Assembly (NCBI GenBank): GCA_052055015.1
Contig: JBQJIT010000063.1
Source: Malassezia furfur
Taxonomy: Eukaryota
Strand: one strand, 5' to 3'
DNA: 37,652 nt
The notes beneath the pieces were generated by a model. The model saw nothing but the letters and a program-made list of their open reading frames with translations. It ran no database searches and had not been told where the DNA came from. Of the stretch, positions 496-37,652 are shown in pieces. A program made the position numbers and the translations under genes. Numbering within the stretch: position 1 is the first letter of the stretch; every line of letters starts with the position of its first letter.

Positions 496-1603
496 CTACG
501 CGATCACGAAACGCTGCGGGTCCATGGCCTGCTTCGCGAGGCGCGCCACCAGGCCGCTCAGCTGCAGCAGCGTGCCGACGCCCTCGAGCACGCGCATGTG
601 CGTCCAGCCGATCTCGCGGATGTACTCGAGCTTGACGGGCTCCGGCAGCTCGTCCATGGTCTTCACCACACGGAACATCGTCGTGACAATGTCCAGTGCC
701 GAGTAGCCGAGCGTCCACACCTCGTCGAGCTTGTCGAGCGCCGCATCGACCTCGCCCCGGTGGCACGCCGCCAGCAGCTCGTGCAGCAGCATCGGGTGCG
801 GCTGGTCGCACACCTTGAACACGTTGTCCGCACTCACGAACCCTTGGCCCGTCCATGTCGATTGCAGGTTGTTGATCGCCTGCCGCATGTCCCCCTCGGC
901 GGTGAACACGATCGCCGCGAGGCCCTCGTCGGCGTACTCGACGTGCTCCGCCTTGCAGATCTCCACCAGCCGGCGCAGCAGCTCCTCGTCCGAGACGCGC
1001 CCAAACCGCAGGATCGCACAGCGACTCTGAATCGGTTCAATGATCTTGTTGGACTGGTTGCACGCGAAGCAGAAGCGCGTCGTGTTGGCATAAATCTCCA
1101 TCGTACGGCGTAGCGCCTGCTGCGCACCGGGTGTCATGCTGCGTCAGTGCCGCACCACCCACCTGTCCGCCTCGTCCAAAATGATGATCTTGTGCCGCCC
1201 GGGGGGCAGCGACACTTTTTTCTGCGCAAACACCTTGATCTTGTTGCGCACCACGTCGATGCCACTGCGCGTCAGCCCATGGCACGTACCGGTCGTCGGA
1301 CGCGTTCAGCTCCAGCACCGCCTCCTTGTACGCGTCGCCCAGCAGGGCGCGTGCAAGGCAGTGCACGCTCGTCGTCTTACCAATACCGGGCAGGCCCTGC
1401 GTGAGTTCAGAACACGCACCGACACAAGCAGATGCGGGCAGTTGCCGTTCTCTTCGATCACGCGCAGCCGCTCGATGGTCGGCGCATTGCCCACGACATC
1501 CTCTAGGCGCCGTGGACGGTATTTTTCCACCCTGTGGTCAGCGGCACACGCGCCGCGCTACGTACCAGGGCAGCTGGTAGCCCTTGGCCACGCTCGAAGA
1601 CAT
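496..1603 (-). CDS. RFC4: Replication factor C subunit 4 (clamp loader AAA+), 5 exons
   Basis: Spliced protein [19 protein letters not shown]...[16 protein letters not shown]...[15 protein letters not shown]...[19 protein letters not shown]...IIEPIQSRC. Introns 1532-1565 (34 nt), 1397-1419 (23), 1265-1289 (25), 1139-1162 (24). Confidence 0.96.
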
Positions 1604-1629
1604 GGTCCGACGCGTCGTGGAGGCGCGCC

Positions 1630-2331
1630 CTACCGAGTGGAGGAAGAACTACCGCGGCGGAATACATACAACCGGTTCTCCAGCGCGAGGAACACGCCGC
1701 CCAAGAGGCCCAGCATGATGCCCACGAGCACTGCGACGCCGCAGATCACATAGAACTGGTAGGCCACATACATCACAGACGACAGCGCAGCCATCGGCCA
1801 TGCGACAAACACAAGGTACAGCGCGGCACCGACGTACCGCAGCGGCGCGCACAGCTCGTACACGTACACGTACACCGTGTGTGCAACACGGCGTGAAATG
1901 TGAATAGGGTGCCGCGTAATGAAGGCAATCGTGTTCACCGTAAAGGCATAGGCCAGGAGCGCCGTATCCAGGAGCGCTTTGGGTACCGCGAGCACCAGGT
2001 AGGTAAAAACGCCGACGCCCCAGCCGACGAGCGCAAGTGCCCCTTGAATCACGGCCCACACGAGTGAGCGCTGCGTAGCTGGTGTGGGCGCAGGCGCAGA
2101 GGCTTCCCGTGGTGCGACGCGCGGCGGCACGGCCTCGGCCTCGGCGCCCGGCGCGGCGTGGGGGATGTAGGGCTGCTGAGGCCGCCACGGATGTGCGGAA
2201 TCGCGCACAAGCTGGTGCTTGTGCCATGCAAGCGCATCGTGTGCACCCGCACCGGCGGTGTGCTCGGCCGCGACGGCTTCGAGCGCGAGCAACACGGCGA
2301 GCACGAGCGTGGGGTACGTCCCCCACCGCAT
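1630..2331 (-). CDS. Hypothetical membrane protein (signal peptide plus several TM helices)
   Basis: ATG 2331 gives MRWGTYPTLVLAVLLALEAVAA, then multiple hydrophobic segments. Fills the gap between RFC4 and IZH. Confidence 0.65.
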   Translation of the reverse strand: MRWGTYPTLVLAVLLALEAVAAEHTAGAGAHDALAWHKHQLVRDSAHPWRPQQPYIPHAAPGAEAEAVPPRVAPREASAPAPTPATQRSLVWAVIQGALALVGWGVGVFTYLVLAVPKALLDTALLAYAFTVNTIAFITRHPIHISRRVAHTVYVYVYELCAPLRYVGAALYLVFVAWPMAALSSVMYVAYQFYVICGVAVLVGIMLGLLGGVFLALENRLYVFRRGSSSSTR

Positions 2332-2368
2332 CGTCGTGCCACGTGCGAATACGCACGCCCCGCCGATC

Positions 2369-3556: not shown

Positions 3557-3559
3557 GAC

Positions 3560-4472: not shown

Positions 4473-5203
4473 TCAACGGAACATGCGCAGATAAGCCAGG
4501 AGCAGTGCACCAGCACCGGTCGCAACACCCACGAGATACTGAAGTCAGCTTCATGCACGCCGCCACGTACCTGCAACACATTGAACTTGGCGCTCTGGAT
4601 GCTTGTGCGCACGCCGGCAATCTCGGACTCGATACGCGTGTCAATTTCCTTGATCTTGAGCGCGTGCACCGACGACTCGTCGCGAATACGGCCCTTTTCG
4701 AGGTTCAAGTCGAGCCGCACACCGGCCGTGGTGCGCGTGATCTCCTCGCGCAGGCGCTGCTTGAGTTTCTCGACGTCGGCCATCAGCCGCTCGTTCTCCG
4801 ACTTCATCAGGACAAAGTCGCTGCGCTCCAGGAGCTGGATCTCTGACTTGAGCTTGGCAAAGTCGACCTTTTGGGTGTACGTCAGCCGGTCGGCCTCGTC
4901 GCGCCGTACAAGGCCGCGCGAAAAGTTGTCAATGCTCTCGTTGATGACATCGATAAGCGCGGTGACCAGTACGTCGGCCTGCTCGCGCTTGATCCCAGCC
5001 TGCTCAAGACGCTGCACAAATGCGTTGGTATCAAAGTGCACGCCGCGCACGCCAAACGGCGCCGCGCCGAGCATGGGTACATATGCCAGCGGTGCCACAT
5101 GGGCAGCCCACGGCCGGATCGGCGGCATGCGCGCTGCGGACACGAGCGGCGCGCGTACCCGGCCCAGCGGTCGCAGCATCGAGACGCTCCGCGCCATCAT
5201 CAT
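4473..5203 (-). CDS. Mitochondrial CCDC90/MCUR1/FMP32 (DUF1640) coiled-coil protein, 2 exons
   Basis: Arg-rich presequence, HFDTNAFVQRLE, GVRLDLNLEKGRIR. Removing intron 4539-4570 (32 nt) gives the C-terminal TM YLVGVATGAGALLLAYLRMFR*. Confidence 0.88.
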
Positions 5204-5258: not shown

Positions 5259-6440
5259 CTACGAGGCCGCGTGGCTCGCCTGGAGCCGCTCAAAGTGGCC
5301 GCGGCTTAACTCCACATTGCGTTTCACGGCGCTGAGTTCTGTGGGGTGAGTAGCGGCACGTACGGATCGCCGGATCGGTCACAATGACCAAGATATAGGT
5401 GCTCGACGTGAGTACGTCCAAGTAGGCAGCAAATGTCTGTGTGCGCAGCTCAAGCCCCTGGATTTGGTGGTGCGAATCGAGGCACGAAATCTTGAAATGC
5501 TTCACCATTTCGCTGATGCGTTCGTAGCGGTCGTCCGACTGCACGTTGGGCCGGCGCCGTGCATCGGGAAGCATCGACTCAGAGAGCCCCTGCATCAGCA
5601 TGGCGTCTGTGTCGTTGTCCTGCAGCGTCACCTCGTCGGCGCCCACAAGCGTGTGCGGCTTCGACTCGGCGGCGCCCATGCGCGTGTAGTACGACATCAC
5701 GAGGAAGGTGGCCTTTTCAAACAGCACAACCTCGGCGGCAGAACAGGTATCAGCAAACAAAGCGAGGTGCTTTTCAAGGCGCTCGACGTCGGGGACGATG
5801 GTGTGGATAATACTGGACCACGCCTGCGGGTCAGTGTGTCAACGTACGCGGTACAGCGTCGCGTCCCAGATGCTCGTCGCAAAGCACCGCAAATGAACGC
5901 GGTCCGGCACGTTGGGGGACGACGCGTGCTCGGCGAGCACCTCGCGCGTCTTGCGGCGCAGGTCCGCAACGCGGCTCTTGTAAATATCGCACCGGCGCGA
6001 CGGCTCAATGAGGTCCATCTTGTGCAGCAAGCAAAACACTTCGGCGCCCGGCGAGTTACTCTGCAGTGCCGATAAGCAATCGCCAAAGTAACGCAGGTCT
6101 GCCTCCCACTCGTGAGGATCGCCGCCATCGTCGTCGGTGTTGACCAGATCCACGACGTAGATCAGCACTCCGACGGCACTGAACACCTGGCTGCGTTGCG
6201 TGTCCATGTAGCTCTCCATGTACGACTTTTGGCCACCACAGTCCCAGAGATTGAGCACGAGGGAGCCTGGAAAGCGCACATGCGAGTGCTCGACCTCGAT
6301 CGTGCTGCCCAGCCGCTTGGTATCCTCGGAGCGGTACGACGAGAAGATGAAGGACCGCATCGAGGTCTTACCAGACCCCGACTTGCCCATGAGCAAGATC
6401 TAGGTGAGCCGGGCGCCTATCCACGTACCTTGCGTTTCAT
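5259..6440 (-). CDS. GTR1: Rag A/B GTPase Gtr1 (TORC1 signalling), 4 exons
   Basis: MKRKILLMGKSGSGKTSMRS, LNLWDCGGQ, LLHKMD, TSIWDATLYRAWS, EVVLFEKATFLV. Introns 6400-6428 (29 nt), 5824-5847 (24), 5339-5363 (25). Confidence 0.95.
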
Positions 6441-12186: not shown

Positions 12187-12237
12187 GCAGAACGCAGACT
12201 AGGTATCGAATACATCACTACATATCGGTGTAAGACT

Positions 12238-13779
12238 CTATGCACGGTCGTTCGCGTACGGCGCGCGCGTCAGTGGCGAGTTGCCCGCGACAATCCGCAC
12301 GCGCGTACCGCCCGGCGTCGTGGCGCGCGGCGGCAGCGCACGGAACTCGTACTCGTCGAGCGCGAGCTGCTTGGCCGGCGTCACCGACCCAGCCGTGGGC
12401 GCAGTCGACGGCCCAAACACGGGCTGCTGCACGGGCTGGATCGGCTGGGGGACCGTCGTAGGCATCGGCGGCATCGGCGGCAGCTCGCGCTCCCGCGCCT
12501 TTTGGCGCAAGTTGCTCGTCGAGCGGCTGTACCGCGCAGCGATCGGCGTCGAGCTCGGGTCCACTGAGTAGGTGCTGCCCGGCGACGAGTCCGTCTCGCG
12601 CTGGCTGCGCGACGACGTAAACGACGACGGACTCGAAAGCGGCGGCGTCGTCGCGTGCACATGGCGGGGCGGGGTCACATCGTCGTGCAGTACAAGCTGC
12701 GACGCGAGCTCGTCGCTGAGCTGCAGCGGCGCAAACACGCTCATGCCCTTGTTTGCACGCGAGGCGATTGTCGTGGTCGGCTCGGCAGCCGTGGCTTGAG
12801 GCATTGGGCTCGTGGTCGACAGCGCGCCCGAGGGGCGCACCGTAATGCGCGCCGCCGGACGCGTCGTGTCCTCCCAGGTCTCGACCTTGCGCGGCGGCGT
12901 GAGGTGCCGGCGTTCGGTCACCGGCGGCGGCTGCAGCGACGCAGTGGTGCGCAGGTCGTTGAGCGACTTATGCGGCGCCACGCTGCGCGTCTCGCGCTTG
13001 CCGTTGACCAGACGCACCACAGAGTGACCGCTGGGGCTCTCATTAAAGGGCGCACCGAGCGACGTGGTCGGCACAGGCCGGGACGCGCTCGGTTCCGTTG
13101 CCAGCATTGTCGTCGGCGGTGCGACGCGCACGGTAGCCGACGTGCTCGGAGGCGGCACCAGTGGCGTAAGAGCATCGAGGAGGATGCGGCCCGCCTCGTC
13201 GCGCGCCAGCGCCGATTCAATCACAGGCAACCGCTTGGTGCGCGGGTCCGCACCGTTGCAATGCGAACGGCAGCACACACACGGGCAGGTGGTCACTTTG
13301 CCGTTCACCGACGTCATTTCGGCCGCGTCAGGCGTCGGGAAGTAGGTCAGGAGCGGCTCTCCGCGCAGACTGCGGATGCCAACGCACGCGCGACGCGAGT
13401 CGTCCGGGTGTCCCGTCGGGGCGAGCGCCGGGTCGATCAGCTCGCCGTTGGGCATGCGCACAAACTGCTCCGCCTCGACTTCGGGGCTCCACGGCGGCGC
13501 AATGGCGCCGACGGGCGAGCCCTGGCCGAGGCCCAGGCGCCGGATCTCGTTCAGAAGGTCGGTCTGCATCTCGGCCGCGAGCTGCGTCACATTGAGCGTC
13601 GGGGGGAGGTACCGGCTCGGGGGGATGAGAGTATCGATCACCAGGTAGCCATCCATGTAGCTCACCGACGTCTGGATTTTGTCCGTCGGAACAAAGTTCA
13701 CTGCGCTGTATCCAGTCGTCACCGTCGCGTTCCCCTCACGACGCAGCGTGGGGGCCATCGCTTTCGTCCGGGCCGACAT
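12238..13779 (-). CDS. Hypothetical Pro/Ser/Thr-rich protein
   Basis: Long intronless ORF from ATG 13779 (MSARTKAM). Mostly low complexity, with one Cys cluster CPCVCCRSHC. Confidence 0.65.
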   Translation of the reverse strand: MSARTKAMAPTLRREGNATVTTGYSAVNFVPTDKIQTSVSYMDGYLVIDTLIPPSRYLPPTLNVTQLAAEMQTDLLNEIRRLGLGQGSPVGAIAPPWSPEVEAEQFVRMPNGELIDPALAPTGHPDDSRRACVGIRSLRGEPLLTYFPTPDAAEMTSVNGKVTTCPCVCCRSHCNGADPRTKRLPVIESALARDEAGRILLDALTPLVPPPSTSATVRVAPPTTMLATEPSASRPVPTTSLGAPFNESPSGHSVVRLVNGKRETRSVAPHKSLNDLRTTASLQPPPVTERRHLTPPRKVETWEDTTRPAARITVRPSGALSTTSPMPQATAAEPTTTIASRANKGMSVFAPLQLSDELASQLVLHDDVTPPRHVHATTPPLSSPSSFTSSRSQRETDSSPGSTYSVDPSSTPIAARYSRSTSNLRQKARERELPPMPPMPTTVPQPIQPVQQPVFGPSTAPTAGSVTPAKQLALDEYEFRALPPRATTPGGTRVRIVAGNSPLTRAPYANDRA

Positions 13780-14031: not shown

Positions 14032-14600
14032 TTACGCAGTACGCTGGATAATATGAACACCGCTGTCGGTGTGGACCACATCGCTGGTCTCACCCACCGG
14101 CAGGTCGTACGCTGCCTTTTCAAAGGCGGGCTGCATTTGGCCGCGGCCGAACTGGCCCAGGTCACCACCACGCTGTGCGGACGAGCAGTCGCTAGACGGT
14201 TAGTAAATAGGAAAACGTACCTGTGCTCCTGTGCAGCCTGGCTGAACTGCTCCGGCGTAGGCTTCGGGCCCAGCTTCTCCTTGAGGTGGTGGAGCGTCTG
14301 GATGGCCTCCTCCTTCGTGCGCGTAATCACCGACTGGCGGTGGCTACTAGGACGACGGCTATCCTTGTGCTTGATAAGAATGTGGCTCGCGCGGATGGTA
14401 TCCTTCGCGTGCGGCACGCCGCCGGCCTGCGCCGCCGCCGGCTGGTCCGCCTGCGCCTCGCCCAGCAGCGAGCCACCCGGAAGGCTGCGGGCCTGCTCCT
14501 CCGTCATGCCTTCCGGGAGCTCCCACATCGACACTTGCGTGTCTGGGTTGTAAAAGTACGGCAGCTGGCGCGTGTTGCTGAAGCGAACTTCCCAGGTCAT
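14032..14600 (-). CDS. ESS1: Peptidyl-prolyl isomerase Ess1/Pin1 (WW plus parvulin), 2 exons
   Basis: [16 protein letters not shown]...SMWELP and [18 protein letters not shown]. After intron 14192-14220 (29 nt): [26 protein letters not shown]...[12 protein letters not shown]. Confidence 0.95.
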
Positions 14601-14925
14601 CGTTGCGAACGAAGCCACCGGACAGTGCTCAATTCCCGCCTGACCGTGCGCACGACCTTGACTAAGCGTGTGTCAGGCGAGTGTAGAAGTTCTGCAGGGT
14701 GTCTGTGCGCAGCGATGTGGCATGCACTTGGTTGAGCGGCTATCTACACCCCCGCGTTCGGTGGCACGATAAGCTTGAGAGAATATAAGGGTATGACAGG
14801 GGCACAGTTCGCAGCCTTTTCCAACCTTTCGTCCCTCTCTCGAATCTTGGCACCGTCTGCTCGGGTCCCGGCAGTCCTTTCCTTTCCTTTCCTTCTCGTA
14901 CGTGTCTGACCCAGGTTGCTTTCCC

Positions 14926-21820: not shown

Positions 21821-23262
21821 TTACAAGTGCGCCTTGGTCTTGTTCTGGTACTTCTTCAGCGCCAGGTTCTTGACGTGGTCGAGGAACTCGAACGTGTTGA
21901 CGTAGTGCTCGCGCTTCATGTTCTTGCCGTAGATCGAGTAGGCCAGGTCCTTGGTCATGACGTTGTCCTTGTCGATCGCCTCAACGCACGCCTCCTCGAG
22001 CGAGTGCGCAAACTGCACAAGCTCCTCGTTCTTGTCCAGGCGGCCACGGAAGATCAGGCCACGCGTCCAGGCATAGATGGAAGCCACCGAGTTGGTGCTC
22101 GTCTCGTTACCCTTTTGGTGTTCGCGGTAGTGGCGCGTCACGGTGCCGTGCGCCGCCTCGCTCTCGATCAGGTCACCCTCGGGCGTGATGAGCTCCGAGG
22201 TCATCATGCCCAGCGAGCCGAAGCCCTGCGCGACAATGTCCGACTGCACGTCGCCGTCGTAGTTCTTGCACGCCCACACGAAGCCGCCCTCGCCCTTGAT
22301 CGCCTGCGCAACCATGTCGTCGATCAGGCGGTGCTCGTACCAGATGTTGAGCCGCTCAAACTCCTTCTTGTACGTGGTGTCGTACAGCTCCTGGAAGATG
22401 TCCTTGAACTTGCCGTCGTAGGCCTTGAGAATCGTGTTCTTCGTCGAGAGGTACAGCGGCATCTGCTTGTCGATCGCGACGTGGAAGCACGCGTGCGCAA
22501 AGCCGGTAATCGAGTCGACCGTGTTGTACATGGCCATGGCCACGCCGCCGTCCTGGTTGTACTCGAACACCTCCTGCTCGATCTTCTCTCCGCCGTCCTT
22601 GGGCGTAAAGGTGATGGTCAGCTTGCCGGCGCCCGGCGCGACAAAGTTCTTGCAGCGGTACTGGTCACCAAACGCGTGACGGCCAATGCAGATCGGTTTC
22701 TTCCAGCCGGGCACCGGACGCGGGATCTTCTCCAAGACGATCGGCTCACGGAAGACGGTGCCGCCGAGGATGTTGCGGATCGTGCCGTTCGGCGAGAGCC
22801 ACATCTTCTTCAGGTTGAACTCCTTCACACGCGCCTCATCGGGAGTGATCGTAGCGCACTTGACGCCGACCTTGTACTTCTTGATCGCCTCGGCCGCATC
22901 GATGGTGACCTGGTCGTCGGTCTTATCGCGGTTCTCGATGCTCAGGTCGTAGTACTTCAGGTCGATGTCCAGGAAGGGGAGAATGAGCTGCGCACGTTAG
23001 TTTTTTGGCCACGCACATCGTTGCGAATCTTTTCCCAGATGATACGCTGCGTCAGACTAGCGAGGACTTACCGTCATCTCGTCACCATCCAGCTCGACCA
23101 CAGGGCCCGACACCTTGATCTTTTGGACTAAGGGTCAGCTCGCATCAGTGACATACTTTGCGGCATGTTTGTGGAATAGCTACGTCCTGGACCAACACGC
23201 GAGGAGCAAGCGATCGAGGTCCGAGCGACAGTACGAGCCAGCGGAACCGGCCAAAATGCCAT
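21821..23262 (-). CDS. IDP1: NADP-dependent isocitrate dehydrogenase, 4 exons, two in-frame starts (23262 and 23166)
   Basis: [51 protein letters not shown]. Introns 23128-23156 (29 nt), 23047-23071 (25), 22988-23016 (29). Ends -AHL*. Confidence 0.96.
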
Positions 23263-23344: not shown

Positions 23345-24360
23345 CTACCAACCGTAATGCTCGGCAGCCTGCTCGAGCTTGTTGTACACCAAACTGGGTC
23401 AGCAGCAGTGTTACATACAAGACCAATGCTGCATGTCAGTCGCGCATCATACGTACCGCTACTCGGCGCACTCCGTAGACACGTCACGCCGAGACCCGCA
23501 TACAGGCCCCGGATCCCACGTGTCCGATAAATTTTGTCCAGCGTCCGGAAGAAACCAGTCGGCTTGTGTGTGGTGGCATGCTGCATCTGGAGCTCGCGCT
23601 CCGTCTGCATCATTGATTTGACACTGTCGGCAGGGAAAAGGCTCACATTGTAGCTGATTCCCGCCAAGGCACCGCATGCCGCAAGCTCGACACTGCTCAA
23701 GTCGGCGCGGTGGTTTTTGCCGTGCAGGCGCAGCAGCTCACGCGTAGACAGTTCAAACGCGGTGAACCATGCCATGCTTCCGCCTGTCTCACGCAGGAGC
23801 GTCCCGGAAAAGCCGAGCCACAGACCACGCACGCCACTCTCGCGCACGGTCTGTGCAATAAAGCCCAATGCGCCCTGGGCCGGCAACACCGTTGCGGTAT
23901 GGCGCTGCGCCATCGTCTGCACCTGCATTTTACATTTGATTAGCTCCACGGGTGTGAGTACACATGCGGCCACCGCGCCTGCGCCCGCACCCGAGAGCAC
24001 CAGTTGTGACACCGACGGCTCGGCGTCCGGCGATGTGCCATATGCGCGCCGAAGAAGCGCCTGGATCTGGTTGTATGTGAGGAAAAGCGCTGCATTCTCG
24101 AGTGTAGCGCCCACCAGTGGCATAGACACGCCTCGGAACAGGCCGCGTACGCCCTCGGAGCGTAGAATCTGGCGGCAGCAATCGTAGGCGCCGGAATAGT
24201 GCGGCGCCGATTCTGGCTGCGTTTGCAAGCGGACTTTGATCAAATCAAACGGATGCTCGATGATTTTGCTCATCATCCCTGCGACGGAGCCGAATAGGAC
24301 ATCTTTCGACGCACGACTCAGGCGCGCGGATCCAGACGGATCGTACGCGTCTGCGGCCAT
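23345..24360 (-). CDS. Mitochondrial carrier, ornithine/amino-acid transporter type (Ort1/Arg11-like), 3 exons
   Basis: Three PX[D/E]XX[K/R] motifs (HPFDLIKVRLQ, TPVELIKCKMQ, FPADSVKS). Introns 23429-23456 (28 nt) and 23394-23418 (25) flank a 10-nt exon, giving SSALVFLVYNKLEQAAEHYGW*. Confidence 0.88.
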
Positions 24361-24445: not shown

Positions 24446-25595
24446 ATGCGCTCGGTGGTGTACGCGCTCGCGGCCCTCGCGGCGCCTGTGGCTGTCTTGG
24501 GCCAGTTGACGACGATATACCTGCCTTCGGGCCTTGTGTCGACGCCGCGGACCGTGGAAATCTCGGCTCCGGATGCGCATCATGTGTTATCGCACCATCT
24601 CGGCGTCGACAGCCGCATCCTCGACACGCCGGCGCCTGACCATCCCGATCTCTGGCACCACCTGCCGGCAGATGCTGCGGAATACGATGCATCCACGCTC
24701 TTCCGCCCCAACGGCGCTGTGGTCCTCATGTTCAACGGCGGCGCGGACGAACGTGACGTGTTTGGCGAGAGTCTGCAGGCGACGCATGCAGTGCCGCACC
24801 GGTCGGACGAGGACTTTGAGTCGCTGGCACATCTTTATGGCGACAGCCGGGGCGGTGTCGTCCACAGCTGTGGGTCAGAGTCCAATGAGGCGCTCGACCA
24901 GCTCAAGGCTGAAGTCGCGCAGCTACACAAGTACGCTGCGGACGAGACGCTATTGGCCCTGTCCAAGCTCAACCGGATGCGCTTTGATGCGCTCCAGAAA
25001 GTCCGGAAAGAGTTTGGCTCAGCGAGCGACGTGTACAAGCAGGCCAAGGAGCAACTGCGTGCGGCCCTGGAGCAGTTCGTGCAAAAGACGACGAATGATT
25101 CGTTCCCGCTCGTGGTGTTGAACACGGCGTCCGAGGACGAGCGCACATTCGTCCGTCGTAGCACGGATGACGAGCCGAACGTCGCGGCATTTATGACGCG
25201 CGCGATCGGAGTCGGTGGCCCCATGCGCCGGCCGAACGGCACGCTTCCGAACGCGGGTGCTTGCCACACCAGCGCACAGAGTCTCGAGAGTGCGACGGGC
25301 AAGTGCAGCGGGCACGGTGTGCCTGTTGAGACGAGCAAGGGCGGGCAGAAGTGCTGGCGGTGCCAGTGCACGCCGACCAAGACGAAGCAGCGCACGTTCT
25401 ACTGGGTACGTGCACAACCACTGACCTCAGACTGGCTCAGCATGTGAGAAGCAGGACAAGTCGGACCTCACGCTGCTGATTATCGGCACCGTATCGCTGC
25501 TCTTTGTGTCGGCCGTGGGCACCGTTGCGCTCTTGTACAATGAAGGCAAGGTCCCGCTCCCGGGCACATTGTCGAGCGTCTCGCTCAGCTCATAG
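24446..25595 (+). CDS. Type I secretory-pathway membrane protein with Cys-rich EGF-like C-terminal domain (DUF3844/Vps3844-like), 2 exons
   Basis: Signal peptide and CSGHG...CWRCQC. After intron 25406-25430 (25 nt): WTGSACEKQD, a TM segment and PLPGTLSS. Confidence 0.8.
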
Positions 25596-25599
25596 GCTC

Positions 25600-27407: not shown

Positions 27408-28319
27408 TTACCGACCTGAGCTCTGCCGTGATGGAAGGTCATTGTGCGTCCCACACCCCCTGGCGCATCCCCATAGTCGCTCACGCTGGTACTGTAGCAG
27501 AATGGGAATCAATTCGCGTGCACCAAACAGCGGCCAGTACTGGTCCACAAAGTGCAGCTGAGTGTCTTCGTTGCATTGCCATAGCAGAAAGTCGCTAAGC
27601 CGATGCACACTCGAGGTACGCACAAGCAGGTCCACAGGAACATCGGTGGGCACCATTAGATGCTCATCGACCGACGCCGGCGTGATGGCCTCTCCGTTCT
27701 CGACGCACTCCGACACGGCATGGCATAGCTCGTCCTGGGCCGAATAGGGCATACAGATGTTGAGTACAGCCCCGTTGTTGTGTTTGGTGGCCTCTTCCAG
27801 GCGCTTAATGGCGTCTTGAACGCCCGGCGGAAGCAGATGCCGCTGGCCCACAACACGCACACGCACCGAGTACCGAGAAACAACTTCGCCGTGATCGTAG
27901 AGCTCCAAAAGACGGGACTTGGCGAGCTCCATCAATGCGTCAACCTCTTCTTGGCTCCGCTTGAAGTTGTCGATCGCGAACGCATACACAGTTACCATAT
28001 ATATCCCCTCGAGGGACATGCACAGCTCTAGTACACGCCGCAACGCCTGGAACCCCATTTTGTGCCCTTCAAATACACGCATTCCATTCGCACGCGACCA
28101 CCGGCGGTTCCCATCCATTATAAACGCAATGTGTCGTGGTAGAGGACCCATTGAAAGTGCTCGGACCATGACCTTCTGCATCAACCCATAGAAGAACGAC
28201 TGCGCCATAGATGCCTGTGCCTGAGCAGTTGACAAGGCGCGCCCGATCAGGGACTTGCCGCGTAGCAGCAGCGTATCAGGAGCTTGTTGGCCTTCTTTCA
28301 TAGAAGTTTTGGTTTCCAT
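27408..28319 (-). CDS. RER2: cis-prenyltransferase / dehydrodolichyl diphosphate synthase (Rer2/Srt1 family)
   Basis: HIAFIMDGNRR, TVYAFAIDNFKRS, DLLVRTSSVHRLSDFLLWQ. Start ambiguous (28346, 28319 or 28208). Confidence 0.9.
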   Translation of the reverse strand: METKTSMKEGQQAPDTLLLRGKSLIGRALSTAQAQASMAQSFFYGLMQKVMVRALSMGPLPRHIAFIMDGNRRWSRANGMRVFEGHKMGFQALRRVLELCMSLEGIYMVTVYAFAIDNFKRSQEEVDALMELAKSRLLELYDHGEVVSRYSVRVRVVGQRHLLPPGVQDAIKRLEEATKHNNGAVLNICMPYSAQDELCHAVSECVENGEAITPASVDEHLMVPTDVPVDLLVRTSSVHRLSDFLLWQCNEDTQLHFVDQYWPLFGARELIPILLQYQRERLWGCARGCGTHNDLPSRQSSGR

Positions 28320-28349
28320 TGGTTCCCAGTTGCTGGCGGAATGCACTGA

Positions 28350-28623
28350 AGTTGTGCACCCCGTCCTTCCCTCCGCAAAGAATCTTGGACACGGATGATT
28401 CTGGGTGGAGGTCCGCGAAACAAACTTAGCAATCTGGCGGTGCGGGTAGCCGAGCCAGTGTTAGTCAAGTGGACAACGAATAGGTCTAATAGCGCATTCA
28501 TTTTGGGTATCTATAGTACGAATGATCTGGTTCAAGAGAACGTAGAGCCAAGAAAGACCAGGTGTGCGCGCTGAGCGCGAAAGAACTTTGCCCGAAAGTG
28601 CCTCGCATTCGCTCAATACCCAG
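28350..28623 (-). ncRNA. Candidate box H/ACA snoRNA, about 275 nt
   Basis: Hairpin-hinge-hairpin-tail layout. Stems TGGGTAT/ATACCCA and CGAATG/CATTCG, H box AAATGA at 28503-28498, stem GCGCT/GGTGC, then ACA (28355-28353) plus 3 nt. Confidence 0.6.
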
Positions 28624-28636
28624 TCGCTTTGGACGA

Positions 28637-29508
28637 TTATTCCTCCTTGGAGGATCGCTTTGACTTGGATTTCTTTGGTTTGTCAGATTTCTTTGGCTTG
28701 TCAGCCTTGTGCGATCCTTCCGACACCGCCGACTTGACTTTCTTCTCCTTTTTCTTCTTCTTCTCCTCTTTATCGTGAGATTTTTTGCTCTTCTTGTCAG
28801 ATTTTTCAGTTGCATGTGTCTCCAAAGAGTGTAAGACAGCTTTTTCCGTGTGATCCGACGTTCGCTTCGCTTTGGCTCTCTTCTCGACCTTTTTGTCCTT
28901 TTTTGGCTTCTTGTCTTTCACCTTCTTGGCTTCTCGGTCTTCGTCCACCTCAGAATCTTCGGTTCTCTTCCGTTTACTGCTGCTCTTTGCAAGCGTCTTG
29001 GACTGTTTATCCTCGCGGGTATTGTTTTCGCTTTCACTAGTCCGAACATCCTTGTGCACTTTTGGAACGACACCTGATCTCGTTTCAGAAGACGCACTTT
29101 GTGCATCCGTATTTAATTGCTGAGCAGTATCACGTTCTTGATTCAAAAGAGACGTATCTCCAATGATTTCACCGCGCACGAAGCCGCTCATGAGCATTCG
29201 ACGCGCGTGCTCAAGTTTAGCAAGAGACGATAGAGACCGACGCGGCATGGGTGACTCGCTCTCCTTCTTCTTCGGTGCTCCAATTGCGAGCGCTTTGGCA
29301 CCAGCCTGAGTTAGTTTGTTAAACGTACAGCAAAGACGTCGTCCCACCATTCAACCGCCCTGTCACGGTTTTGTCCGATACCGCCAAGATTCCGTTTCTG
29401 AGGAATGATGAGAGGTTTTTTTAGTCCTCTACCACGGTCTCCATCCAGTGGAGATCCATGACCCCGCCAACCCTGCTTGGTCAGGTATCGATTTGTGTCC
29501 AACGGCAT
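28637..29508 (-). CDS. TMA23: Tma23-like nucleolar G-patch-like protein with Lys-rich tail, 2 exons
   Basis: YLTKQGW...GLKKPLII...GIG...EWWDDVF. Intron 29306-29328 (23 nt) joins this to the KKE-rich C-terminal exon. Confidence 0.8.
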
Positions 29509-29644
29509 GCTCGGGCTTTATGCACGTTCAACCAAGTCGACACAAAAAATTCTAGCCTTGGGAAAATCTGAGCTTGGACCTCCGCACCAAAATAAATTTC
29601 TGAAGTGCCCCTATCGTATTACACCTAGTGATCTGCTAAACAAT

Positions 29645-30345
29645 ATGCTGGTACGTGGATTCCCGGCCATGCGCTTGCAGCCGCATGTGGGTCGAGGTCC
29701 ATGTTCTACACTCTTTCATCCGATAAAACACACAGGTCGTGATATTGCTAAGCTGCCCGCGCACGCTGTTCCTCGCGTTGCCTCACGTTCATTTCTCAAC
29801 CTCAACGGTATTCTAGGTGGTGGATCACCACAAGGAGAGGAATTCGACGAAACGGTGATTCTTCCGTATTCAAGTTCTGAGCTCTTCAAAGTCGTTTCAG
29901 ACGTTGATTCTTACTCGGAATTTGTTCCCTTCTGTGTTGCTTCGCGTGTTTTGGGCCCTACTAAGAACCCAGACCCCCGCACAAAAAAGGACGGAGCCAC
30001 GTCCGTGGTGGATGCAGAGCTTGCCATCGGATTCGCAAGTGTCCGGGAAAGCTACGTGAGTGAGGTGAGCATGCGTCCGAATGACTTTGTTACGGTATGT
30101 CAACTTTCTTACGCCAGGCCCGTGCGAAGCCATCGGCTCTATTCAATGAGCTCAGTACGACATGGCAATTTCACGCTCTGCCAGCGGCAGGCAAGTCACC
30201 CCGAACACGTGTCAAGTTTGCGCTGCACTATTCCTTTGCAAACCAACTCTACGCAACACTTGCGAGTCAAGTCTTCCAAAAGCTCTCCACAAAAATGATT
30301 GACGCCTTCACCCAGCGCGCGCGAACATTGTACGGCCCTCGCTAG
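29645..30345 (+). CDS. COQ10: Coenzyme Q-binding START-domain protein Coq10, 2 exons
   Basis: Presequence, LFKVVSDVDSYSEFVPFC, ESYVSEV. After intron 30095-30117 (23 nt): LFNELSTTWQF...MIDAFTQRARTLYG. Confidence 0.92.
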
Positions 30346-30487: not shown

Positions 30488-31694
30488 ATGCCCAAAGGAT
30501 ACGCCGTCAGTGACACGAAGAACTGGACCGACTTCAAGGTTATCGACTTCGACCTGAAGGTACGTTGTCGCCTTATACTGACCATCAGACGCCGGAAGAC
30601 GATGACATCGATGTCTCGATTACGCATTGCGGCATCTGTGGCTCGGATGTGCACACGATCTCGGGCGGATGGTACGTTACATGAGAGTATGATTAGTCGC
30701 TAACTACCAGGGGCCCTCTGAAGGTGCCTCAGGTCATCCCCGGCCATGAGATCATCGGCACGGTCACCAGTGCGTATGACGATGACAAGGCGTACTCACA
30801 TAACAGAGGTCGGCAAAAATGTCAAGGATATCAAGGTCGGTGACCGCGTCGGCGTCGGTGCGCAGGTGGGCAGTTGCGCGCACTGCTACCCTTGCACGCA
30901 CGACAATGAAAACTGTACGTATCTGTCACACGACACTTGCTCACACGACAGACTGTATTGGGGATGGCAAGGGTCACATGGTCGACACCTACAACTCGAT
31001 CTGGCCGGATGGCAGCATCGCCCAGGGTGGTTACTCGACCAACATCCGCGCCCCTGAGCAGTTTGTGTTCCCCATTCCCGAGGGCCTTAAGTCGGAGCAC
31101 GCGGCGCCTATGCTGTGTGCCGGTCTGACTGTGTACAGCCCGCTGCTCCGCAACAAGGTGGGCCCTGGCTCGCGCGTGGGTGTCGTGGGTATTGGTGGCC
31201 TCGGTCACTTCGCCGTGATGTTTGCCAAGGCGATGGGTGCTGAGGTCGTGGCCATTTCGCACTCGGCGAACAAGAAGGACGACGCGTTGAAGATGGGCGC
31301 TTCGGAATTCGTGTCTACCAAGGAGGACCCGGAGTGGTCGAAGAAGTACCTTAACAAGCCGTTTGATGTGATCATTAACACGGCTTCGTCCGCGGCTGTG
31401 GACCTTCCCGGCATGGTGGCGGCGCTGAAGACCGAAGGTCGCTGCATTTGTGTGGGCATGCCCGAGGATGAGATCAAGTTGCACGTTCAGGACCTGGCCA
31501 TGCGCGGTGCGTTCCTGGGCAGCAGTCACATTGGCAACAAGAAGGAGGCACTTTCGATGCTCCAGCTTGCTGCCGAGAAGAAGATTGAGCCGTGGATCGA
31601 GCTTGTGGACATGAAGGAATGCTCCAAGGCGGTTGAGCGCGTGTCCAAGGGTGACATCCGCTACCGCTTTGTTCTGAAGCAGGACCTCAACTAG
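30488..31694 (+). CDS. NADPH-dependent zinc medium-chain alcohol dehydrogenase (Adh6/7, cinnamyl-ADH type), 5 exons
   Basis: CGICGSDVH, GHEIIG, structural-Zn Cys cluster, APMLCAGLTVYSPL, GIGGLGH. Introns 30560-30588, 30672-30710, 30770-30806, 30915-30951. Confidence 0.94.
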
Positions 31695-31830: not shown

Positions 31831-32220
31831 ATGTCTGCATTCCGTGCCTCGTCTGCCGCGTTCCGTGCCTTCCGCGCGACCCCTCGCGCTTCCTACAATG
31901 CGCCGCGTTTCCAGCCGCACGTCGGCAACACGCTGTACGTATTTCCCTTGAGGTATTGAGACTAACACGACGCAGCTCGCCGCAATATATGATGAAGTAC
32001 GCAGTGCTTGTTGTGTGTAACCTAACCGCAGGTGGGTCCCCTCTATGGCGATCTGGGGTGTCTCGTCGGGTATCCTTGTGACGGTTCTTCTCAGCGGTGT
32101 GCCGCTTTTCCAGAAGGATGTGCTGGACAAGACCCCGGTGGCTTGGTTCTACGAGGGTACGTTGGGATGCGAGTGACTTACATGTCAGACAAGACTCCGG
32201 ACTCGGACAAGCCGTTCTAA
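31831..32220 (+). CDS. QCR10: Cytochrome bc1 complex subunit 10, 4 exons (absent from the ORF track)
   Basis: Spliced MSAFRASSAAFRAFRATPRASYNAPRFQPHVGNTLSPQYMMKWVPSMAIWGVSSGILVTVLLSGVPLFQKDVLDKTPVAWFYEDKTPDSDKPF*. Introns 31935-31975, 31997-32031, 32157-32188. Confidence 0.9.
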
Positions 32221-32749
32221 ATGTTGGTCGATAGCTGCAAAGACCACTTTTTTCCGCTATGCTTTGTGAGGTATGGTGTTCTCAGGCTTTAAGTCCGCAT
32301 GAGCTGCGTTGGTTTGGCTATCAGGTTTCTGCCTGTGTGCACTCGCATACATGAATGGAGTGATGTGGGCATGGGCTACCGTAGTTTTGTCTATGGTGTC
32401 AGCGGATCCGAGGCAGCATACGATTTTTCAGATCGCGTGCCGACCATGAAATCGCTGTTGTCCGGTTCGCTCGAGTGTCAGCCAAATTGGGCATCGGACA
32501 TAATCGACTGAATAATTTCCCCGTCGAAATTATTGCGCGTGCCGGCAGCGTGGTTGGATGGCGAAGTGACCTGGCCTGCCTCTTTCCAATATCATCATAC
32601 GTGCTTCTTTCGTTTCGCGTTTGAGCGCACGCTTAATCTGCCCATCTTCCCGGTTTAGGTGCCAGCTCCTTGAACCACTTGGACCGTGCCGCTCTGTTCC
32701 GTCTCCACTTGTTCCATCGCGTTTTTGTTCCCAGTCGTCCAAGAACTCG

Positions 32750-33475
32750 ATGCCGTTCAGCAACGCTGTCCCCGATTCGCTTCTTGACCGGAATCAGTCA
32801 TGGTCGAAATCGTTTGAATCGCAGCAGCCTGATATCGCACAGGCCCTGCGCGAGGGTCAACACCCCAAGGTGCTGTGGATCGGCTGCAGCGACTCTCGTG
32901 TGCCTGAAAGCGTTGTGTGCAATGCGCGGCCAGGCGAGCTGTTCGTGCTGCGTAACGTCGCGAACCAGTTCCATCTGCACGATGATAGTGCTGTGAGTGC
33001 CCTGACCTTTGCCGTGCAGGCGCTGGGAGTCGAGCATATCATTGTGGTTGGTCACACGTCGTGTGGGGGTGTCGCCGCGGCGGTCAAGCAGGTGCTGCGC
33101 GAGCGTGACGAAAGCATTTCGGAGGTGACGCAGAGCACGGCACTCACGCGTCACCTCACGCCTCTGACGGACCTGGCACGCTACCTCTACATCAAGCTGC
33201 ACGAGCGTCACACGATGGACGAAGCGCAGCTGCAGGAGCGGCTCATGCGCCTCGTCACCGAAGCGAGTGTGCGCCGGCAGATCCAGAACATTGTTGACCA
33301 CCCGGTTGTGCAGGACAACTGGCGTCAAAAGGTGTCGCCGCTGAACGGCAAGGTGAACCCGCGGGTAACGATCCATGGCTGGATCCACAACCTGGGCACG
33401 AGCCAGCTGTTGGACCTCGATGTGACCGTGAACCCCCCACCCCTGGAAGAGAAGGAAGCGGCTTCTTCTTCGTAG
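32750..33475 (+). CDS. NCE103: Beta-class carbonic anhydrase
   Basis: GQHPKVLWIGCSDSRVPE, PGELFVLRNVAN and GHTSCGG (Cys-His-Cys Zn ligands). Confidence 0.96.
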   Translation: MPFSNAVPDSLLDRNQSWSKSFESQQPDIAQALREGQHPKVLWIGCSDSRVPESVVCNARPGELFVLRNVANQFHLHDDSAVSALTFAVQALGVEHIIVVGHTSCGGVAAAVKQVLRERDESISEVTQSTALTRHLTPLTDLARYLYIKLHERHTMDEAQLQERLMRLVTEASVRRQIQNIVDHPVVQDNWRQKVSPLNGKVNPRVTIHGWIHNLGTSQLLDLDVTVNPPPLEEKEAASSS

Positions 33476-33488
33476 ACAATCCTCTGTG

Positions 33489-34715
33489 CTATAACGCGTC
33501 CCATCGAATACCTCCGCCCGGCCCGTACCGAGCCTTGTCTTCGAGCCAGGCATTCGCCTTGGCAAAGTGCCCGTTCCCCAAGAAGCCGCGATGGGCACTC
33601 AGTGGCGACGGGTGTGGCGAGCGAAGAATGAGTACGTTGGGCGATTTCTGCATGAGACGCACACGTACCTCGGTGATACCGGCCTCGGCGAGCGTTCGTG
33701 CCGCCGGCTGCCCCCATGCCAGGAACACGACGGGCTGTCCCGCAGTCTTGGTCGGCGTCTTGCCCTGCAGCATCGCATCGAGCGGGCCACCGGCTTTGCT
33801 GGCCGTCGATCCTGCGGCATTCTTGGCGATCGCCTTGAGAATGTCGCGCGTAAACGGCTCCCAACCGCGGTTGTGGTGCGAGCCTGCGTTGCCCGCATTG
33901 ACGGTCTGGGTCAGCGGCACAGCGTACCAAACACGCATTGAGCAACAACACGCCCTGGTTTGCCCATCCATTCAGACAGCTGGGTGAGTTTTGCGAAAAC
34001 CTACCCATGCTTCGGCGGGACAAAGTCGGGGTACTCGGCCTTGAGCTCCTTGTAGATATTTTGCAGGCTCGCGGGAACTGCCTTGCCCATCGGCACAGAG
34101 AACGAGTGGCCACACGCCTGGCCCGGCTGGTGATACGGATCCTGGCCGATGATGACGACCTTGACCTTTTCGAGCGGTGTCGTGCGCGACCAGCTGTGGA
34201 TGAGCTGCGGCGGGGGGAAAATGGTCTTCCCCGCGCGCTTCTCCCCCGTCCAGGAACTGTTTGAGGCTCGCAAAACTGTCACGGCGCATCGAGGGCTCCA
34301 GCCGGTTGAACCATTCCTTGTTCATCGTCGTGCGCTCCAGGGCGAGCGGATCGTCGGGCGTACCGGCATACGGCAAGTCGTAGGCAGGTGCGGGCGGGAT
34401 CGACCGGTCGGCGACTGGCGGTGTGCTAGACGCAGGCGAGCTCGACGGTGGTGTCGGTGGCATGCGCGCCGCAGCGCTGGGCGCCTTGTCTGGTGGGGAC
34501 GACGCGGGGCGCGTCGCGTCGCGTTCCGTCGGACGCGCCTCGGCGGATTCCACGGCGCGTAAAAGGTCCTCTTCTGGCACGTCGAACTCGTCAAACTCGT
34601 CGTGCGTGCTTGGCGCTACGTCCTTGGCATGGAGCGTGCGCGCACGCTTCGCGGCGGGACTCGTGATGGACATTGCTCGTACACCGCGCAGAGCCGATCG
34701 CGTCCAGAGATGCAT
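33489..34715 (-). CDS. UNG1: Uracil-DNA glycosylase (family 1) with an apparent +1 frameshift at 34243-34247
   Basis: [41 protein letters not shown]. Introns 33980-34004 (25 nt), 33906-33927 (22) and probable 33648-33668 (21). Confidence 0.92.
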
Positions 34716-34760
34716 GCGCGACGCGTCGCGTGGGGTCCCACGTGGCGACGACCGTGCGCG

Positions 34761-37652
34761 ATGCCTCCCAAGCAGGTGTCGTTGCACGCCTTCTTTGGGG
34801 GCGAGCGCGCGCCCAAGCGGGCCCGTACGGACGAGGGGGGTCATGCTGAAAAAGGTGAGGGCAGTCGTGCCGCGGTAGACGAGCAAGAGCCGCACGACGC
34901 GTCGGCCCCGCGCGATGCACCGACGCCGCACGCTGCGCCGACTCCACGCGCCGCGGCGCCAGCCAACCCCCTGGCGGTGCACCGCTTCGACCCGAATGAT
35001 GCGGTGCCGCACGCGATCCACGCGCGGCACTCGTTTGCGCAGGTCGTCAAGCCAACGGCGCGCACGGGTCCGGTCAAGTATACACCGCTCGAGCTGCAAA
35101 TTCTGCAGCTCAAAAAAGAGAACCCCGGCGTGCTGTTGCTCGTCGAGGTGGGCTACAAGATGAAGTTTTACCAGGAAGATGCGCAGATTGCGAGTCGTGT
35201 GCTCAATATTGTACGTGCAATGCTCACGCAGGCGTGCTTCCCCGAAAAGAACCTGCAGGCGGCGATGATTCCGGTGCCTCGCCTGGCGGTGCACGTCAAG
35301 CGTCTCGTCGCGGCCGGCTACAAAGTCGGTGTGTGTCGCCAAACGGAGACGCGCGCGCTCAAGGCGGCAACGGAAAACGCCAACAAGCCGTTTACGCGTG
35401 CGCTTACGGCGCTGTACACGGCAAGTACGTGGATCGACGACATCGGTGCGGTGCAGTCGCCCGAGGAGCTGGGCGGCGAGCAGGTCCTTGTGTCGCTCGC
35501 CGAGACCGCCGCCGGCGCGACCCGCGTACGGATCGGCCTGGTTGCCGTCGACATTGCGACGGCGTCGGTGACGTACGATGTATTTGTGGACGATGCGATG
35601 CGCAGTGTAAGTGTGGTGTTGACAACAGGAGCTCGAGACGCGGCTCGCGCACCTGGCGCCCAAAGAGCTGGTTCTGGCGCGCGGCACGAGCGCACAGACG
35701 GAGCGCGTGCTGCGTGCGTACGCCGCGCACCTGCCGGGCGAACGCCCCGCACGCATCGAAGAGGTCGACGCGGTGGATGCGTCGGCGGCGGCCTCGGCGC
35801 TCGCCGACGCGGCCGCGGCATGGGATGCGCAGGTACTGCCCCTGCTTACGTCGCTCGATGCGCATGTGCAGAGCGCGGCTGCCCAGCTCGTTCGCTACCT
35901 GGCTGCGTACGGCCTGACGTGGGCATTTGCCGAGGCCGGCAACTATGCCGCGTTCCAGGACCGAACCTGCATGCTCCTGAGCGGGCACACGCTGCGCAAC
36001 CTTGAGCTGATGCACAACGCGACCGACGGGCAGGTGTATGGCAGTTTGCTGTGGCATCTGGACCACTGCCGCACGCCGATGGGCAAGCGCCTGCTGCGGC
36101 AGTGGCTGCGGCGCCCGCTGCTGGACGCAGCGCAGATTGCGCGCCGTGCGGACGCGGTGGATGTGCTGCGCGAGCGGCGCCTTGCTGTGCTGCACCAGGC
36201 GGTCGCGATGCTCACGCGCCTGCCCGACCTGGCGCGCGGCCTGGCGCGCATCGCGTATGGTCTCGTAGAGCCGACCGAGCTCGCGACGGTGCTGCTCAGC
36301 CTGCACCGCATCACGCGCGAGTTTTCGTTCCGCGACGCCGCCGAGGTGCACTCGGGTGCGGCGCAGCTCGATGCGACGCTCGCGGCGCTGTCGACGGCGC
36401 GCGAGTGCGTTGCGACGCACCTCGCGGCGATCCGCGTGAGCGAGGCGCGCAAGAACGCCAAGACGGAGGTGTTTACGGATGCGGCGCGGTACCCCGAGAT
36501 TGCTGCCTGGAAGGAGCAGCTTGCGGACGACGAGGCCCAGCTGGCCGCGCACCTTGACGAGCTGCGTGTCACTCTACGGCGCCCCAAGCTGCAGTACACC
36601 AGCGTGTCCGGTCTCGAGAACCTGATCGAGGTGCGCGCGGGCGAGGCGAGCAAGACGCCGGCCGACTGGGTGCGTGTCAACAGCACCAAGGCTGTGGTGC
36701 GCTTCCACACGCCGACGGTGCTGCGCCTCGCGCGGCTGCGTGAGCAGCACCGCGAGCAGCTCGCCGAGGCGGGCCGTGTGGCGTGGCGCGACTTTGTGCA
36801 GTGTGTCGCACGCGACTATGGTGCGATGCGCCGCGTGGTGCGTGCAGTTGCCGAGCTCGACGCGCTGACGTCGCTCGCGGACGTCGCATCGCTGCCCGGC
36901 TACACGCGCCCGACGCTCTCCGACGAGGACGCCGTGGTGCTGCGTGCGTTCCGGCACCCTGTGCTCGAGGCGCTGCGCCCGCTGCCGTACGTGCCGAACG
37001 ACGTCGCGCTCGGCGGTGCGAGCCCCCGCGCGGTGCTGTTGACCGGCGCCAACATGGGCGGCAAGTCGAGCACCGTGCGTGCGCTGGCGCTCGTGCTCAT
37101 CCTCGCACAGATTGGGTCGTTTGTGCCGTGCGCCGAGGCGCGTGTGCCGTGCCACGACGCCATCCTCACGCGCATGGGTGCGCACGACCACCTCGAGCGG
37201 GGCAAGTCGACCTTCCTGGTCGAGGCCGAGGAGACGGCGCACATCCTGCGTACGGCGACGCCGCGCTCGCTGCTCATACTGGATGAGTTCGGGCGCGGCA
37301 CGTCGACGTTTGACGGGGCGGCGCTGGCGTACGCGGTGCTGCGCACGCTGCTCGCGCCCGAGGCGCGGCCCAAGGTGCTGTTCATCACGCACTATGCGGC
37401 GCTCGGCGCGCTCGCCGACGAGCTGCCCGGGCGTATCGCGAACCTGCACATGGCGACGCGCCTCGACACGCACGGCGACCACACCGAGGTCGTGTTCCTG
37501 CACACGCTGTGCGCCGGCCTTGCGCCCGCGTCGCTCGGTGTGTACGTCGCGGGCCTCGCGGGGCTGCCGGCAGCGCTTGTCGAGGAGGCCGTGGCGCATG
37601 CGCGCGCGCGGCGCACGGCCAACAAGCTGTACCGCCTGCAGTCCGGGCAGAC
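34761..37652 (+). CDS. MSH3: MutS homologue Msh3 (3' truncated by window)
   Basis: PIP box QVSLHAFF, YTPLELQ...LLLVEVGYKMKF (Msh3-type), GYKVGVCRQTETRALK, TGANMGGKSS, DEFGRGTST. Introns 35211-35231 (21 nt) and 35607-35628 (22). Confidence 0.94.

Follow-up and report, generated by a model that had tools for sequence, protein, structure and literature searches.

We analysed a 37,652-nucleotide (nt) stretch of Malassezia furfur DNA (contig JBQJIT010000063.1 of assembly GCA_052055015.1), referred to below as the window, and found in it 33 very short GT-AG introns in 15 genes. With a probability of about 0.9, the sequence evidence points to ordinary U2-type GT-AG spliceosomal introns, which lie at the very short end of the eukaryotic range and are normal for the nuclear genes of this genus. 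We infer that these introns are excised from RNA on the strength of homology, public M. furfur protein models and the RNA sequencing (RNA-seq)-backed annotation of a sister species; the choice of branch adenosine and the spliceosome components that would act on it are likewise predictions. All results come from the window sequence, homology and the literature, and the sample is this one 37.6-kb M. furfur window.

Gene models were rebuilt independently by scanning both strands for short GT...branch...YAG candidates and then building models around open reading frames (ORFs) supported by Pfam. The accepted introns are 21-41 nt long (median 25, mean 28.0), 17 of them being 25 nt or shorter, and together they occupy 923 nt, or 2.5% of the window. 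Four introns each are found in RFC4 and in a Zn-alcohol dehydrogenase (ADH) gene; three each in Gtr1/RagA, IDP1, QCR10 and UNG1; two each in an HlyIII/PAQR-type gene, Rit1, an ornithine carrier gene and MSH3; and one each in genes for a CCDC90-like protein, a WW-rotamase protein of the Pin1/Ess1 type, a Vps3844-like protein, a COQ10-type protein and a lysine-rich protein that belongs to no Pfam family. Some of the exons beside these introns are themselves tiny, with lengths of 10 nt (23419-23428), 12 nt (6429-6440), 21 nt (31976-31996) and 30 nt (23017-23046). A strict pattern, GTACGT-N(4-26)-CTNAC-N(1-6)-YAG, matched the window 18 times, compared with a mean of 0.16 and a maximum of 1 in 100 dinucleotide-preserving shuffles, and all 18 matches lie on the sense strand of gene models. 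Intron lengths divisible by three are under-represented (5 of 33, P 0.017 in a one-sided binomial test), the other 28 introns having other lengths. Three of these five contain an in-frame stop, and the two that are stop-free are both 21 nt long. The scarcity of multiple-of-three lengths would fit selection for nonsense-mediated surveillance of unspliced RNA, as seen in a small sample.

The splice signals are highly uniform in layout. Every one of the 33 introns starts with GT and ends with AG. The most common 5' splice site is GTACGT (19 introns), followed by GTGCGT and GTATGT (3 each), GTAAGT and GTACGC (2 each) and four singletons; GTRNGY describes the 5' splice site of all introns except one, which has GTACAT, and the U12-type donor [AG]TATCCT occurs in none of the 33. 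The branch motifs are CTGAC (13), CTCAC (10), CTAAC (6), CTTAC (2), CTCAT (1) and TTGAC (1), with 31 of 33 conforming to CTNAC, and the acceptors are CAG (29), TAG (3) and AAG (1). The predicted branch A lies 16-32 nt from the 5' end of the intron (median 20) and 5-10 nt from the 3' end (median 6), and the first AG after it is always the one taken, there being no competing AG between the predicted branch A and the used AG in any of the 33 introns. A spacer of 4-20 nt separates the 6-nt 5' site from the 7-nt branch site, in which the A is the sixth base. The introns have 54% GC and 50% pyrimidine overall and carry no polypyrimidine tract of the metazoan type, for which there is no room because just 5-10 nt follow the branch A. 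This missing tract is a yeast-like variant of U2-type introns and gives no ground for excluding them from that class.

An earlier note on this DNA had reported the same number of introns and genes, the same length range and median and the same 17 introns of 25 nt or less, and our independent models reached identical totals; the coordinates of its three examples, in RFC4 (1397-1419, 23 nt), UNG1 (33906-33927, 22 nt) and MSH3 (35607-35628, 22 nt), are exact. The signal counts bear out the layout that it described, with a GTACGT donor, a short spacer, a CT(G/C/A)AC branch, YAG and no polypyrimidine tract, and its statement that the 5' splice site and the branch site are very close, with a branch A at 16-17 nt, agrees with the minimum of 16 nt that we measured.

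On this evidence each intron would be little more than its signals, namely a strong 5' splice site that is mostly GTACGT, a CTNAC branch of the yeast type and the first AG. The introns would most likely be recognised through these near-invariant signals by intron definition, for which the strong 5' site together with the yeast-like branch box would supply enough information. The 3' site would be picked by its nearness to the branch point, as the first AG 5-10 nt further on, and not by a polypyrimidine tract.

The earlier note had also claimed that removing the introns restores conserved proteins. This stands for 22 of the 33 introns, for which continuity of homology, profile or structure was found across the junction, while the other 11 were accepted by motif and reading frame. 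The 22 comprise all the introns of RFC4 (four), IDP1 (three), the ornithine carrier (two), UNG1 (three) and MSH3 (two), seven introns placed by Pfam coordinates, and intron 4 of the ADH gene.

In RFC4 (minus strand) the introns are at 1532-1565 (intron 1, 34 nt), 1397-1419 (intron 2, 23 nt), 1265-1289 (intron 3, 25 nt) and 1139-1162 (intron 4, 24 nt), and the spliced protein of 333 residues aligns without gaps to seven full-length homologues. The junction at intron 2 restores the Walker A stretch, intron 3 has the strict motif, and the junction at intron 4 falls in the DEAD-box stretch, where retention of the intron would lead to a stop six codons on. The three IDP1 introns (minus strand) are at 23128-23156 (intron 1, 29 nt), 23047-23071 (intron 2, 25 nt, flanking a 56-nt exon) and 22988-23016 (intron 3, 29 nt, flanking the 30-nt exon), each at a junction of the spliced model. 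With all three removed, 417 of 420 residues are identical to the NCBI M. furfur IDP1, and the model aligns gap-free to nine homologues, with which, as with the NCBI protein, it has the N-terminus in common.

The ornithine carrier gene (minus strand) has introns at 23429-23456 (intron 1, 28 nt) and 23394-23418 (intron 2, 25 nt), with the 10-nt micro-exon at 23419-23428 between them, as supported by homology and by the NCBI M. furfur model. Only this two-intron model yields the conserved C-terminus of the carrier, which is identical to that of NCBI M. furfur CBS9595_001675. Four other models (a single 63-nt intron, no splicing, and either intron alone) gave unrelated tails and were rejected.

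UNG1 (minus strand) has introns at 33980-34004 (intron 1, 25 nt), 33906-33927 (intron 2, 22 nt) and 33648-33668 (intron 3, 21 nt). The first two were placed by Escherichia coli UNG coordinates and by fungal homologues: exon 1 runs to E. coli UNG residue 107 and exon 3 takes up again at residue 126, and the 52-nt exon 2 with its split codon accounts for exactly the 18 residues in between. Intron 3 is a multiple of three and stop-free, and its retention would add seven residues that are found in none of 11 homologues; spliced UNG1 aligns gap-free to these 11 fungal-type proteins. We also observed a one-base shift of the UNG1 frame within five consecutive G (34242-34246, minus strand), which leaves the conserved N-terminal part and the catalytic core in different frames with no intron signals between them. 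This break is probably a homopolymer assembly error, or else a true frameshift in the strain.

In MSH3 (plus strand), intron 1 (35211-35231, 21 nt) is again a multiple of three and stop-free, and reading through it opens a seven-residue gap relative to human MSH3 at exactly that place. At intron 2 (35607-35628, 22 nt) the end of exon 2 corresponds to residue 196 of human MSH3 (412 in the long chain) and the beginning of exon 3 to residue 197 (413).

The seven introns placed by Pfam coordinates interrupt profile matches that continue from one exon to the next. In the CCDC90-like gene (4539-4570, minus strand, 32 nt) exon 1 matches profile positions 1-155 and exon 2 positions 156-175 of 175. In Gtr1/RagA the match to the Gtr1_RagA profile runs over positions 2-167 before intron 2 (5824-5847, minus strand, 24 nt) and over 168-231 after it. 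The intron of the WW and rotamase gene (14192-14220, minus strand, 29 nt), which has TACTAAC as its branch, separates nearly contiguous matches to Rotamase_3 positions 11-59 and 63-112. The match to Vps3844_C in the Vps3844-like gene (25406-25430, plus strand, 25 nt) is nearly contiguous at about 50/56, covering positions 1-46, which end four residues before the exon does, and 56-103. In the COQ10-type gene (30095-30117, plus strand, 23 nt) the Polyketide_cyc profile is contiguous at about position 65, positions 1-63 reaching to two residues before the exon end and positions 72-126 starting from residue 8 of the next exon. Introns 2 and 3 of the ADH gene (30672-30710, 39 nt, and 30770-30806, 37 nt, both plus strand) share one basis, exon 2 matching ADH_N positions 2-25 and exon 4 positions 47-78, with the 59-nt exon 3 filling the gap. 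For ADH intron 4 (30915-30951, plus strand, 37 nt) the support is an alignment to a solved structure, which is contiguous save for a five-residue loop: exon 4 corresponds to residues 78-112 of 6kj5_A, and residue 10 of exon 5 to residue 118.

The remaining 11 introns were left on motif and frame because their short exons gave no matches. None of them is a multiple of three, all must be removed to give an uninterrupted ORF with a start codon, and 8 of the 11 fit the strict pattern. The HlyIII/PAQR-family gene (plus strand) has a strict motif at both of its introns: intron 1 (2415-2439, 25 nt) is also required by the frame, and the exon downstream of intron 2 (2671-2702, 32 nt) begins at HlyIII profile position 9. 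In Gtr1/RagA (minus strand), intron 1 (6400-6428, 29 nt, strict motif) follows the 12-nt first exon and gives the sole start codon upstream of the P-loop strand, and intron 3 (5339-5363, 25 nt, strict motif and frame) precedes a last exon of 25 residues that has no Pfam match. Rit1 (minus strand) contains the least canonical intron of the set, intron 1 (18198-18225, 28 nt, GTACAT...AAG), which gives an ORF with an ATG and has no homology support; intron 2 (18118-18142, 25 nt) was placed by motif and frame, and the exon downstream of it begins at Rit1_C profile position 37. The intron of the lysine-rich protein gene (29306-29328, minus strand, 23 nt) has the strict motif, and its retention would lead to a stop five codons on. 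Intron 1 of the ADH gene (30560-30588, plus strand, 29 nt), placed by strict motif and frame, follows a first exon of 24 residues without a Pfam match. QCR10 (plus strand) accounts for the last three: intron 1 (31935-31975, 41 nt, strict motif and frame), the longest in the window; intron 2 (31997-32031, 35 nt, motif and frame), which comes after the 21-nt exon; and intron 3 (32157-32188, 32 nt, strict motif and frame). Exon 3 of QCR10 matches positions 12-47 of the QCR10 profile.

Single-exon searches were of little help for the smallest pieces. A per-exon Pfam scan gave no match for RFC4 exons 2 and 4, HlyIII exon 2, Gtr1 exon 4, Rit1 exon 1, both exons of the lysine-rich gene, ADH exon 1, QCR10 exon 1 or UNG1 exon 3. 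When Pfam was searched again at E values up to 10, with the frame containing Rit1 exon 2 included, all four queries returned zero families. A PDB search with HlyIII exon 2 found a sole, irrelevant match (E 2.4), and one with HlyIII exon 3 aligned the start of that exon to AdipoR1 in a sub-threshold stretch only.

Splicing in Saccharomyces cerevisiae relies on a strong consensus at the 5' splice site and the branch site, and introns there are few. The window introns resemble this system in the strength of both consensus signals, and one of them has an exact TACTAAC box. Yeast introns have a mean length of 397 bp in the cited part of a fungal survey (PMC8476143). Those of the window, in contrast, are ten times shorter and number about 1.2 per gene. 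Paramecium introns are AT-rich, in an AT-rich genome, whereas those of the window are 54% GC and have an explicit yeast-like branch site; multiple-of-three lengths have also been reported as under-represented in Paramecium. In length the two sets fall in the same class, the tiny introns of Paramecium tetraurelia averaging 25 nt in the portion of the source cited (10.1101/2021.08.05.455221).

The strongest alternative to ordinary U2-type splicing is the one proposed in the earlier note: U1 and U2 would be unable to fit together in the usual way on introns so short, and Malassezia would therefore have a spliceosome that is structurally modified or reduced ('miniaturised'), or would assemble it by an altered pathway. 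The branch A can come as near as 16 nt to the 5' end, which leaves about 4 nt between the 6-nt 5' site and the 7-nt branch site, and a 10-nt exon sits between the 28-nt and 25-nt introns of the carrier gene. The SF3a/b proteins of U2 contact roughly 20 nt upstream of the branch site, and in the window introns this region would overlap the 5' splice site; U1 at the 5' site and U2 with these contacts at the branch site would be expected to crowd each other on an intron of 21-25 nt, which gives the note's argument some force. A comparable case is Stentor coeruleus, in which introns are 15-16 nt long, the branch A is the base at position 10 or 11 and the tail measures 5 nt, and for which the cited part of the source reports that many splicing proteins are 'slightly reduced in size', that SR proteins were undetected and that regions of branching factors differ (PMC9505925). 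The same text, however, reports that all small nuclear RNAs (snRNAs) are present and that the core is conserved (PMC9505925), and myxozoans are likewise reported to have kept conventional snRNAs and core proteins, as far as the cited part of that paper goes (PMC13644364).

We regard a modified spliceosome as unlikely. The data do not demand it, every cis signal in the window being canonical U2-type. Stentor introns, as that source describes them, share with those of the window the GT-AG ends, and their fixed distance of 5 nt from branch A to 3' end equals the window minimum. They differ in having a near-invariant length, a weak branch consensus and a loop of 10-11 nt, compared with 21-41 nt, a strong branch motif and a loop of at least 16 nt here. 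Stentor combines tighter loops with a conserved core, and therefore a conserved catalytic core is known to cope with a tighter geometry than that of the window. By analogy, the 5-nt minimum tail common to both suggests a shared physical limit and not a special system. A more specific proposal is a compacted or sequential hand-off between U1 and U2, acting on 5' and branch sites about 4-10 nt apart and across exons of 10-30 nt, with lineage-specific changes in U1, SF1, U2AF and SF3; this too we hold to be doubtful. Were it true, Malassezia, which can be cultured and transformed, would offer a tractable fungus in which to study the physical lower limit of intron size, and an adapted splicing machinery in this genus would be moderately interesting, chiefly through the tractability of the organism.

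Four points weigh against accepting all 33 stretches as spliceosomal introns. Eleven of them are without homology support, their short exons having given no Pfam or PDB matches. Some of the single-exon profile matches used are weak, with E values of 0.19 (CCDC90 exon 2), 0.063 (rotamase exon 1) and 0.01 (ADH exon 2). The two 21-nt introns are in frame and stop-free and could be lineage-specific insertions of seven residues, though the homologues disfavour this. Finally, a well-formed candidate of 27 nt in the carbonic anhydrase gene (32993-33019, plus strand), with the signals GTGAGT..CTGAC..CAG, proved to be coding, so the motif can arise by chance. This candidate was rejected because its read-through aligns gap-free to solved beta-carbonic anhydrases. 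A looser form of the pattern gave 56 candidates of 45 nt or less, made up of 32 accepted introns, 6 nested variants and 18 others that are neither. The motif alone is insufficient because only 32 of these 56 were accepted and because 32993-33019 is coding.

It is nevertheless rather improbable that some of the 33, mainly the two stop-free 21-nt stretches and the 11 placed by motif and frame, are coding sequence or chance motif matches. The seven residues that retention of the UNG1 21-mer would add are absent from all 11 homologues, and the MSH3 21-mer coincides exactly with the seven-residue gap relative to human MSH3. The 11 introns placed by motif and frame all have lengths other than a multiple of three and are required for a continuous ORF, and eight of them fit a pattern for which 0.16 matches are expected per window. 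The false candidate 32993-33019, for its part, falls outside the verified ranges, its putative branch A being at 13 nt from the 5' end (compared with 16-32) and at 14 nt from the 3' end (compared with 5-10). It is scarcely credible that errors of sequencing or assembly, programmed frameshifts or excision by a non-spliceosomal route (e.g. of the Ire1/tRNA-ligase type) lie behind the frame breaks: there is one genuine frame break that is not an intron, at the UNG1 G run around 34242-34246, but all 33 stretches have a GT start, an AG end and a branch-site motif whose distance from that AG is fixed, signals which errors or frameshift sites would not bear, and the same exon junctions are used in the RFC4, IDP1, carrier and UNG1 proteins of other species.

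Ordinary U2-type introns of this size agree with what has been published for the genus. M. sympodialis is reported to have 5350 curated introns with a mean of 30 bp, of which 5271 (99%) are supported by RNA-seq (PMC5389616), and M. restricta 2150 introns averaging 37.2 bp, their median being 30.0 bp (PMC9241646). For annotation of M. restricta the minimum intron length was set to 20 and then to 15 (PMC6473144), and a review attributes 'very short introns' to Malassezia genes (PMC7426719). These introns come from the same genus and are on the same length scale as those of the window, which in this one 37.6-kb sample are marginally shorter (mean 28.0, median 25, compared with a mean of 30 in M. 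sympodialis and a median of 30 in M. restricta). Density is similar as well: M. sympodialis has about 1.2 introns per gene, and the window 33 in about 27 genes. In the cited part of a fungal intron survey M. sympodialis serves only as an 'intron-poor' species (PMC8476143). In addition, five of the window introns are already taken into account in the public NCBI M. furfur proteins for IDP1 and the ornithine carrier. The novelty that the earlier note had considered for such extreme shortness is thus lost, since related fungi carry the same documented length mode. The tiny introns are real, ordinary for the genus and already known. As a discovery they add little, because length statistics are in print and public M. 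furfur proteins reflect the introns. In the cited parts of the M. sympodialis and M. restricta papers, length statistics are given, and what is described here for the window is the layout of the splice signals; we found no dedicated study of Malassezia splice signals or spliceosome composition in the open-access papers searched (subscription journals were outside the search). Although documented, the introns are under-noticed outside the Malassezia literature, to judge from the cited portion of a 2026 paper, in which the known exceptions below about 30 bp are given as ciliates, microsporidia and dicyemids and Malassezia is not among them.

The window introns are near the smallest size known for a canonical spliceosome, and they occur in a culturable fungus; they could therefore be used to probe how 5', branch and 3' sites that nearly touch are read. 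They also bear on annotation. The NCBI RFC4 records of M. obtusa (215 residues) and M. psittaci (213 residues) take as their start the first methionine that follows the last tiny intron and are without the ATPase motifs, and the M. pachydermatis record (280 residues) skips the Walker A exon. By sequence comparison with their relative at 496-1603 in the window, the RFC4 records of these three species are mis-annotated through missed short introns. The automated protein call for the ornithine carrier is, similarly, an unspliced read-through. Tiny introns still defeat annotation pipelines, and Malassezia and metagenomic fungal contigs need a minimum intron length of about 15-20 nt.

The window is nuclear DNA with densely packed eukaryotic genes (Pfam map, 110 long ORFs). 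The large IDP1 exon is 99% identical to the NCBI entry 'IDP1 [Malassezia furfur]', the ornithine-carrier exon is 95% identical to M. furfur CBS9595_001675, and the last exon of RFC4 shares 98% identity with an unnamed protein and 92% with M. obtusa RFC4. Judged by these IDP1, RFC4 and carrier exon identities, the host is M. furfur or a very close strain. The GC content per 2 kb ranges over 0.50-0.68 across the window. It dips to 0.50 at about 28000-30000, compared with 0.56-0.68 elsewhere, in a segment that contains the lysine-rich gene (28637-29508) and the start of the COQ10-type gene. Rfam at the gathering threshold gave zero matches over the window, which therefore holds no snRNA. A GC3 frame plot of the window did not separate the strands and was left unused, and in a metagenome scan the carrier exon matched just one locus, whose 34% identity made it of no use for comparing introns.

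Four further intron-like elements were noted as candidates. A 17-nt element with GTACGT..CTGAC..CAG (14898-14914, plus strand) lies 12 nt upstream of the sedolisin start codon (14926). It may be an intron in the 5' untranslated region; no other intron of the window would then be as short, its branch A would be at position 12 and its 5' site would adjoin the branch site without a spacer. The 530 nt that separate QCR10 from the carbonic anhydrase gene contain, on the minus strand, two intron-like elements, at 32304-32350 (47 nt) and 32391-32421 (31 nt). The minus strand of the region 32304-32421 has no convincing ORF (the best has 26 codons) and no Rfam match, and the pair may belong to an unannotated small or non-coding transcript. 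Finally, a 42-nt intron-like element (12218-12259, minus strand) is located at the 3' end of a serine/proline-rich ORF of 514 codons (12238-13779), and its splicing, if it occurs, would change only the last few codons of that ORF.

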